Origin: an uncultured Trueperaceae bacterium
GTDB taxonomy: Bacteria > Deinococcota > Deinococci > Deinococcales > Trueperaceae
Assembly: GCA_963727505.1 (NCBI GenBank)
Contig: CAVSGP010000004.1
Span: 352,001-416,000, forward strand
Direction of reading: 5' to 3'
DNA length: 64,000 nucleotides
Both the position numbers and the translations under genes were made by a program. A model generated the notes under the pieces. The model ran no database searches and was not told the DNA's origin. It saw only the letters and a program-made list of their open reading frames with translations. Numbering within the stretch: the stretch's first letter is position 1; each line of letters opens with the position of its first letter. Shown here one piece after another: positions 13,441-17,459 of this stretch.

Positions 13441-16203
<2,763 letters not shown>

Positions 16204-16230
<27 letters not shown>

Positions 16231-16426
16231 GAACGACAACGGGCAATGCATCCCCACCCGGCAATGCCCATTGCCATGGGAGGGCCGCCGCTTAGGAACG
16301 ACAACGGGCGATGCATCCCCCACCCGGCAATGCCCATTGCCATGGGCGGGCCGCAGCCTGACAGCAACCTCAGGCGGCGTCACGTTGCGCGGCAATGCCC
16401 ATTGCCACGGGAGGGCCGCAGCCTAG
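16204..16426 (+). repeat. Array of secA 3'-end repeats (27-nt core x4; 36-nt unit x3) with 29-30-nt spacers
   Basis: GGCAATGCCCATTGCCAYGGGMGGGCCGCMGCYTRR at 16260, 16326 and 16391; 27-nt core also at 16204 inside secA; period 65-66 nt. Confidence 0.92.
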
Positions 16427-16470
16427 GGGGACCGCCGGCGGCGCGCCCCGCGAATCCGCCTAGACTGTCC

Positions 16471-16497
16471 GCGGCCCGCCATCGAGCGGGCCGCTTC
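16471..16497 (+). terminator. Possible terminator hairpin after secA and the array
   Basis: GCGGCCCGC-CATCGA-GCGGGCCGC followed by TTC (weak U tract). Confidence 0.4.
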
Positions 16498-16568
16498 AAC
16501 GTGCTGCGGCCGCGGGGCCGGCGCCCGCCCGTCGGCCGACGCCCCTACTCTGCTAAGCTGAGCGCCGC

Positions 16569-17459
16569 ATGGACTTCGTCCGCAGCCTGCACGACCGCAT
16601 CCGCGCCACGGACTCGCGCGTCTGTCTCGGCATCGACCCGCGCCCCGCGCTGAGTCCGCTGACCGATCCGGCGCGGCTCGACGACGACGCCGAGCGCGTT
16701 GCCCACGCGGTCGAGGCGAGCTTCGCCGCCATCTTGCGTGCCAGCGCAGACGCCATCGCCTGCTGCAAGCCGCAGGTCGCCTTCTTCGAGGCCCTGGGCC
16801 TGCCGGGGCTGCGTGCGCTTGTCGGGCTGCTGCGTACGGCCCGCGAACTCGGGGTACCGGTGATCCTCGACGGCAAACGCGGCGATATCGGCAGCACCGC
16901 CGAGGCGTACGCGCACGCCTACCTGGCGAACGGCACGTTCGCTGCCGACGCCCTCACCGTCAATGCCTACCTGGGGCTCGACACCCTCGAACCCTTCCTC
17001 GACGCCGCACTGGAGCACGGCCGGGGGCTCTTCGTGGTACTCAAGACCTCGAACCCGGGCAGTGCCGACCTGCAGGACCTCGTCCTCGCCGACGGCCGCC
17101 TGCTCCACGAGGCCCTCGCCGACCGGCTAGCGGCACGGGCGAGCGACCTTCCCCGCGGTCCGGACGGCTACAGCGCTCTCGGCGTCGTGGTCGGCGCGAC
17201 CTATCCGGAGGCGCTGGCGGCACTGCGGAGTCGCGTCCCCGCCAGCGTCGTGCTGGTCCCCGGATACGGCGTCCAGGGCGGGCGAGCCGGGGACGTCGCC
17301 GCCGCCTTCGACGCCGACGGTCTCGGAGCCGTGGTGAGCGCCAGCAGGTCCCTCACCTACCTTCCAGCGACGAACGAGCAGGAGCTCGCTTCAGCCGCCC
17401 TGGCGGCCGTCCGGGAGATGCGCGACGCCATCAATCGCGCACTCGACGCGCGCGCCTGA
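16569..17459 (+). CDS. pyrF: Orotidine-5'-phosphate decarboxylase (type 2)
   Basis: CLGIDP, KPQVAFFE, DGKRGDIGST, KTSNPGS, VVGAT, VPGYGVQGG. Confidence 0.95.
   Translation: MDFVRSLHDRIRATDSRVCLGIDPRPALSPLTDPARLDDDAERVAHAVEASFAAILRASADAIACCKPQVAFFEALGLPGLRALVGLLRTARELGVPVILDGKRGDIGSTAEAYAHAYLANGTFAADALTVNAYLGLDTLEPFLDAALEHGRGLFVVLKTSNPGSADLQDLVLADGRLLHEALADRLAARASDLPRGPDGYSALGVVVGATYPEALAALRSRVPASVVLVPGYGVQGGRAGDVAAAFDADGLGAVVSASRSLTYLPATNEQELASAALAAVREMRDAINRALDARA

Follow-up and report, generated by a model that had tools for sequence, protein, structure and literature searches.

The 3′ end of secA in an uncultured member of the Trueperaceae is followed by three further copies of itself, and this array is probably a gene-end minisatellite, each unit of which is made of nine codons and 38–40 nt of flank, with a terminal inverted repeat at its ends. 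Such units would be gained and lost through slippage guided by hairpins and through unequal recombination, while recombination between strains would stack former gene ends behind the live one, and the array is likely renewed without an enzyme of its own. It lies in a 64,000-nt stretch of DNA (contig CAVSGP010000004.1, positions 352,001–416,000, assembly GCA_963727505.1), hereafter called the window.

Structure of the secA array

All features of this region are on the forward strand of the window. The secA gene (13441..16230) encodes 929 amino acids with a SEC-C motif at the C-terminus, and scored above the cut-offs of NF009538 and TIGR00963. Its last 27 nt (copy 0; 16204..16230) are the live secA end and the left arm of unit 0, and were seen again at 16269, 16335, and 16400, with spacings of 65, 66, and 65 nt. 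As an earlier note made from the sequence had described, GGCAATGCC stands directly before every downstream copy, at 16260, 16326, and 16391, and the spacers measure 29, 30, and 29 nt. Specifically, unit 0 continues with spacer 1 (16231..16259; 29 nt), which belongs to the duplicated 3′ flank and the final 3 nt of which are part of the terminal stem, and with a right terminal arm (16260..16268) of GGCAATG plus CC, which repeats the unit's opening 7 nt in inverted orientation. Unit 1 (16269..16334; 66 nt) comprises copy 1 (16269–16295), exactly the same as the gene end, spacer 2 (16296–16325), and a right arm (16326–16334). A single substitution and a single inserted base set spacers 1 and 2 apart, and the unit is a recent duplicate of unit 0. 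Unit 2 (16335..16399; 65 nt) comprises copy 2 (16335–16361), with four synonymous codon changes, spacer 3 (16362–16390), and a right arm (16391–16399), and is an older allele. Copy 3 (16400..16426), with three synonymous codon changes, is likely the oldest former secA end. Copies 2 and 3 together showed eight nucleotide differences from the gene end, every one synonymous, and the four copies had no amino-acid change among them, again as first reported.

The array is followed by a tail (16427..16568) that represents old 3′ flank: 122 of 145 nt are identical to the tail in the sister genome G004, and its first part shows homology with the spacer of that genome (21/38). Within this tail, TGCTAAGCT (16551–16559) is a putative −10-like box of pyrF, for which the promoter search returned no sigma-70 match. 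The tail leads into pyrF itself (16569..17459), encoding orotidine-5′-phosphate decarboxylase (TIGR02127, above cut-off).

In the 3.26-Mb genome to which the window belongs (G000), the 16-nt junction occurred three times at up to two mismatches, each time inside the array; the 27-mer of the secA end had no further match at up to four mismatches, and the array palindrome had no other occurrence. Rfam models gave three matches over the array with E-values of up to 5, all under the gathering score, and none to a CRISPR repeat family.

An assembly artefact, which the earlier note had named as a ground for discarding its reading, is rejected because independent runs and independent assemblies contain the array. 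Logan contigs of run X5 spanned 16215–16298 and 16280–16465 with 0 differences, those of X1 spanned 16318–16609 with one difference, and those of X3 spanned 16325–16470 with two; in all, read support came from four runs in two studies, one of which runs may be the source sample itself. Additionally, one contig each from X1 and X4, belonging to a related strain, joined the secA end straight to the tail (16244 to 16432), a hint only, given a short side of 32 nt and a low likeness setting.

Distribution and order of copies among relatives

We recovered secA from nine of the ten genomes of the genus, and six of the nine had extra copies of its end. Total copies were four in G000, three in G003, two in each of G004, G008, and G001, and at least four in G006 (counted across a gap); G005, G007, and G002 had no extra copies. 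Seven metagenome contigs added arrays of two to three copies each, and L158 bears the same kind of array; in genomes and contigs alike, the copies always lay directly behind secA. Among 128 genomes of the family, 39 matched the secA-end pattern and six had more than one match, always within an array. The arrays fell in two clades of the secA tree that are 0.30–0.36 apart at fourfold sites, and had units of 65–67 bp throughout.

Comparison of secA-pyrF regions confirmed that copy number varies among relatives: L154 has two copies and L114 three, in near-identical strains with 8 differences in the 3.9 kb upstream. G006 (at least four) likewise differs from L140 (two, a value that possibly reflects assembly collapse). 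The ordering proposed at the outset, with the youngest copy at the gene, also held. The first copy was identical to the host's own gene end in nine of 11 arrays, even as the encoded ends differ between species; the last copies were the most decayed, with additional worn remnants downstream in G006 and L058. Separately, the secA-pyrF gap in L004, L007, L008, and L058 is a slot for gained genes (0.8–3.2 kb; GNAT-like, MFS-like, and others by our own reading), which, at loci with an array, lie behind it.

In seven of nine arrays, the DNA after the last copy resembled the preceding spacer plus arm (21–38 of 38–40 nt), and in the remaining two it matched at 10 and 16 of 38. Neighboring spacers were often duplicates, and those of G000, G004, G008, and G003 were mostly homologous. 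Therefore, the unit consists of gene end, flank, and right arm, and not of a repeat and a foreign spacer. The third spacer of the window, at first thought unrelated in origin, belongs here as well: spacers 1 and 3 each aligned with the G004 spacer at a score of 18, and 0 of 200 shuffles scored as high. Between G000 and G004, spacers have diverged faster than the tail (about 60% versus 84% identity). Their length stays at 29–31 nt, yet their sequences are at chance similarity between some lineages, and slippage alone fails to explain constant length with such fast divergence.

The terminal stem

The palindrome at the junctions was present as originally described, but the description was incomplete. 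The right arm pairs with the 7 nt that open the unit, and beyond a 2-nt bulge come three more pairs, for a stem of 10 bp in all. Across the arrays, 92.7% of 110 stem cells were paired. At two stem pairs both partners have changed, in each case at a third codon position of secA where the change is synonymous, namely His CAT/CAC in G001 and G006, and Gly GGG/GGC in L058; this covariation amounts to two events in related sequences, with the structure derived from those same sequences. The partner arm matched at 5–7 of 7 positions at +56 to +58 in the six array genomes, and at most at 5 of 7 anywhere in 22 single-copy secA loci. These same pairs can also fold as a small hairpin that spans the junction.

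Further inside the unit, pairing did not differ significantly from that of shuffled sequences (mean z −0.56 to −0.69; p 0.059). A reading of every unit as one imperfect hairpin over its full length was rejected: single folds predict inner pairing, but only the terminal stem holds. A resemblance between the arm and a type IIS restriction site was likewise dropped, such hexamers being common.

Synonymous alleles and recombination between strains

Over all arrays, seven copies differed from the gene end of their own host, and 12 of 18 non-redundant codon changes were synonymous, an excess (p 0.009) over 0.36, the fraction that a neutral copy next to a constrained gene would be expected to show. 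Four of the seven diverged copies, all of them last copies, carried amino-acid or stop changes, such that the random non-synonymous decay put forward as a counterargument is there in part, and the synonymous excess persists beside it. It is likely that the copies once served as real SecA ends, as had been suggested from the window; the excess and the X1 and X4 contigs that join the secA end to the tail both point this way.

Spacers 1 and 3 of G000 are near chance similarity, and the coding arms beside them have no amino-acid change. Such diverged spacers next to unchanged protein ends would be hard to produce within one lineage, and fit units each of which was once the gene end of a different lineage. 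Moreover, between G000 and G004 six of the nine end codons differ, versus 16 of 155 upstream (p 1e-4, for the best of 66 pairs), and secA differences between near-identical strains cluster in mosaic tracts, with 6 of 8 within 76 nt in one case and 6 of 8 within 226 nt in another. G000 encodes ComEC, DprA, and NucS; MutS1 was not found in this genome, which is 97.4% complete. The last codons that unit 0 has in common with L075 are at most suggestive of a transfer from clade B, to which the spacer alignment gave no support.

Enzymes and dispersed copies

Searches of G000 returned no Cas1, reverse transcriptase, Y1, IS110, or serine resolvase, the transposase families covered being Y1 and IS110. 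The two tyrosine recombinases of this genome (L262:1465-2499 and L271:1405-2538), one Xer-like and one prophage-like by our own reading, scored 65 and 43 bits against the TIGR02249 cut-off of 265, and neither reached a named NCBIfam cut-off. Tyrosine recombinases were present in all ten genomes of the genus.

Scans of metagenomes and genomes gave 171 junction matches in 168 loci. Fourteen of these matches continued like a secA end, of which 13 were in ten secA loci and one (L173) was unrelated; a match in G020 had no secA end behind it. In IMG/VR there were 0 junction matches and seven matches to the end pattern, none of them secA, and the best E-value in BLAST searches of phages and plasmids was 0.7. 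Away from secA, neither the unit nor the junction was found, whether among the 128 genomes of the family or in the three scans of sequence collections, and no island with a second secA end was found in the family. These results count against the proposal of the earlier note that the unit is a mobile cassette handled by a site-specific enzyme, as do the lack of an integron integrase in G000, alongside that of the enzymes named above, and a similar architecture of unrelated sequence elsewhere.

Similar duplications at other genes

Three more stop-spanning duplications, of 62–77 bp, were present in G000, at an ABC permease gene, a roadblock-like gene pair, and mreD; gene names at all loci but secA and pyrF are our own reading of translations. 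The ABC permease end (L210:2618-2817; G000:C8:52117-52316; minus strand) is present in three copies, with units of 69 and 74 bp and a GCATGC palindrome at the joint. The last copy differs only synonymously and the middle copy has two inserted bases; the same gene end is single-copy in the five relatives examined. The roadblock-like gene junction (L211:2327-2467; G000:C4:651826-651966; minus strand) has a 62-bp duplication that forms a coupled mini-ORF, and is shared by G000, G004, G003, and G008 (the last with an assembly gap beside it) and absent from five other genomes of the genus. Its copies are 0–1 nt apart within each of the four species and 2–4 nt apart between species, and its junction palindrome is kept even where the downstream gene start has lost it. 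The 77-bp duplication of the mreD end (L212:2780-2901; G000:C14:107279-107400), before a penicillin-binding-protein gene, also forms a coupled mini-ORF, and was found as a decayed copy in G009, as a remnant in G006, and not at all in six others.

Terminal inverted repeats of 6–8 bp bound five of ten non-coding duplications, and the other five had no 6-bp repeat. For a fixed window, a 6-bp terminal repeat was present at 0.28% of gene ends; with all rotations allowed, P was 0.02–0.16 per locus at the other loci. The sequences of the terminal repeats are unrelated among loci, and therefore structure is indicated, not a recognition site, a pattern that would favor a process guided by structure over one that depends on a site-specific enzyme. 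The copying of gene ends is not widespread in G000, because the count at ORF ends (16 of 7873) is near the 11–12 at internal offsets; an earlier count had given 9 of 3763 versus 8–36. In G003, of which 1.2 of about 3.3 Mb were scanned, the secA case alone was found.

Two other repeats were noted in G000. The leader of a gene for a YmdB-like metallophosphoesterase (G000:C4:593934-594022) contains three units of 26–28 bp, bounded by GCATGC arms and each with a −10-like hexamer. Between flotillin-like and PhoH-like genes, at G000:C4:90337-90475, lies an intergenic tandem repeat of 57 bp that has an imperfect palindrome inside it.

Origin of the array

Each step of the minisatellite mechanism given here is a reconstruction. 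In single-stranded DNA, the ends of a unit would pair and thereby mark the segment that is recopied by slippage or template switching. Gain or loss of whole units would leave SecA intact and hence be tolerated, with selection on the protein acting on the first copy only. Through expansion and contraction by unequal recombination, copy 1 could stay the same as the gene. A unit without its stem would no longer duplicate and would decay at the distal edge of the array, and the stem may thus be maintained by this mechanistic filter, or else by template switching between the arms. Incoming DNA would recombine upstream within secA and downstream, out of register, in the 27–36-bp repeat, placing new gene-end alleles in front and pushing former true ends downstream. 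We infer that neither a dedicated enzyme nor a benefit to the cell is required. Two studies describe template switching as able to create and maintain stems (PMC8794818, PMC8604942). Homology-facilitated illegitimate recombination is reported to use 3–10 bp at the second end and to be rare (PMC3240628); this rarity counts against our explanation, as does a first duplication without microhomology to the DNA upstream of the His codon.

Several observations would also be expected if the unit were a non-autonomous 65-bp hairpin cassette, attC- or IMEX-like, that a tyrosine recombinase acting in trans joins, as folded single-stranded DNA, to the secA end, where it would supply a gene end of its own and displace the old one. 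The insertion point is fixed at the His codon, unit length is fixed, and the newest unit comes first; the stem has a conserved 2-nt bulge and covaries, divergence is concentrated in the 27-nt end, and G000 has its Xer-like recombinase, as every genome of the genus has tyrosine recombinases. However, no integron integrase reached the cut-off, attC core boxes are not in the unit, no copy occurs away from secA, the spacers derive from host flank, and similar duplications at other genes have unrelated terminal repeats. We consider this cassette unlikely, and equally so its more specific form, in which a selfish 65-bp cassette that arose from a host secA end would move between strains and species, and be inserted at the SEC-C His codon by the host's Xer-like recombinase. 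Were the cassette real, the array would be a chronological record of gene-end replacements by an element without a gene of its own and, given such a recombinase, the smallest kind of gene-end-replacing mobile unit. The synonymous alleles would also fit gene ends borne by donors, as would be left if a larger phage or island had integrated at the secA 3′ end, restored it, and later been lost, leaving its attachment arms joined. Yet among the 39 family genomes that match the end pattern, the only second matches are those of the six arrays, adjacent units are often identical duplicates, and the viral and plasmid searches were empty of secA ends, which renders such scars improbable.

The stem might instead be under selection, with duplication doing no more than multiply it. 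It could act in RNA, as a hairpin that shields or terminates the secA mRNA, or in DNA, as a palindrome repeated before pyrF to which a protein binds. Conservation of the stem across the two distant clades agrees with this idea, as do the hairpins over the stop codon predicted in many units and a pair of weak minus-strand sites that resemble terminators. We nevertheless hold it unlikely, in that the stem is absent from three of the nine genus genomes and from 22 other single-copy loci, where pyrF often starts 5–50 nt behind secA, the fold of the whole array reached a z of only −1.24, and the palindrome is nowhere else in G000. Finally, a CRISPR array, or an off-target array made by Cas1-Cas2, would account for a 36-nt palindromic repeat, spacers of 29–31 nt, and the newest-first order, and the array had initially been labeled CRISPR-like. 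The label does not stand, since the spacers are not unique foreign sequences and are duplicated and homologous to secA's own 3′ flank, and G000 has no Cas1; in addition, the repeat tracks the secA of each host and matches no Rfam CRISPR repeat. An origin of this kind is highly implausible.

Comparison with known repeat systems

Integron attC sites and IMEX hairpins are about 65 nt long, have an end-to-end stem with unpaired bases, and are ordered with the newest unit first. The secA unit shares this size, stem, and order, but is without integron integrase, cargo, or core boxes, the last as judged by the general consensus for such boxes. Integrative elements at the 3′ ends of housekeeping genes can accrete in tandem, restoring the gene end and displacing old ends downstream. 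The gene end is restored and old ends are displaced likewise in the secA array, but there is no integrase, no cargo, and no distant second copy of the gene end, and the units are host flank. E. coli tyrT-type repeats carry the 3′ end of a tRNA gene, in longer units. They resemble the secA array as tandem units that hold the end of the upstream gene, and differ from it in that the latter holds a protein-coding end with synonymous alleles; our literature search found no paper on tyrT-type repeats. As in MITEs or other non-autonomous insertion sequences, the unit has terminal inverted repeats (7–8 bp, or 10 bp with the bulge), but it occupies a single locus, with no dispersed copies and no Y1 or IS110 transposase in G000.

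Mycobacterial interspersed repetitive units (MIRUs) are described in PMC12548453 as short repeats at gene junctions that leave the neighbors intact, and in G000 the duplications at the roadblock-like pair and at mreD similarly give rise to coupled mini-ORFs. MIRUs, however, are dispersed and insert at start codons with a translationally coupled mini-ORF, whereas the secA unit is confined to one locus, has lengths of 65, 66, and 67, has no coupled ORF, and consists of host gene sequence. The closest likeness is to bacterial VNTRs, or minisatellites, which change by slipped-strand mispairing and unequal crossing-over. Like these, the array has head-to-tail units of local sequence and a copy number that varies among close relatives, along with concerted evolution and decay at one edge, and we infer the same type of change here, by slippage and unequal recombination without a dedicated enzyme. 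PMC12418385 describes tandem repeats in prokaryotes as enriched beside start and stop codons. Unlike a typical VNTR, the secA array includes in its unit the live terminus of an essential gene, has a covarying stem at the unit ends, and stacks synonymous alleles. No published secA-end repeat was found in the literature searched, with subscription journals largely outside its scope; genus-wide persistence, the covarying terminal stem, and the ordered synonymous alleles are what is new in this array.

Implications

The secA array is a clear case of a false CRISPR, with a 36-nt palindromic repeat, 30-nt spacers, and polarity, and array finders could miscall it. The repeat persists across the genus inside the end of an essential gene, where each gain or loss rebuilds that gene. 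Its ordered old alleles would be a readable record of recombination between strains, as well as a typing marker. Together with the other duplications, the array makes it possible to ask, at several natural loci, whether the boundaries of tandem duplications are set by terminal inverted repeats in bacteria with NucS and without MutS1.
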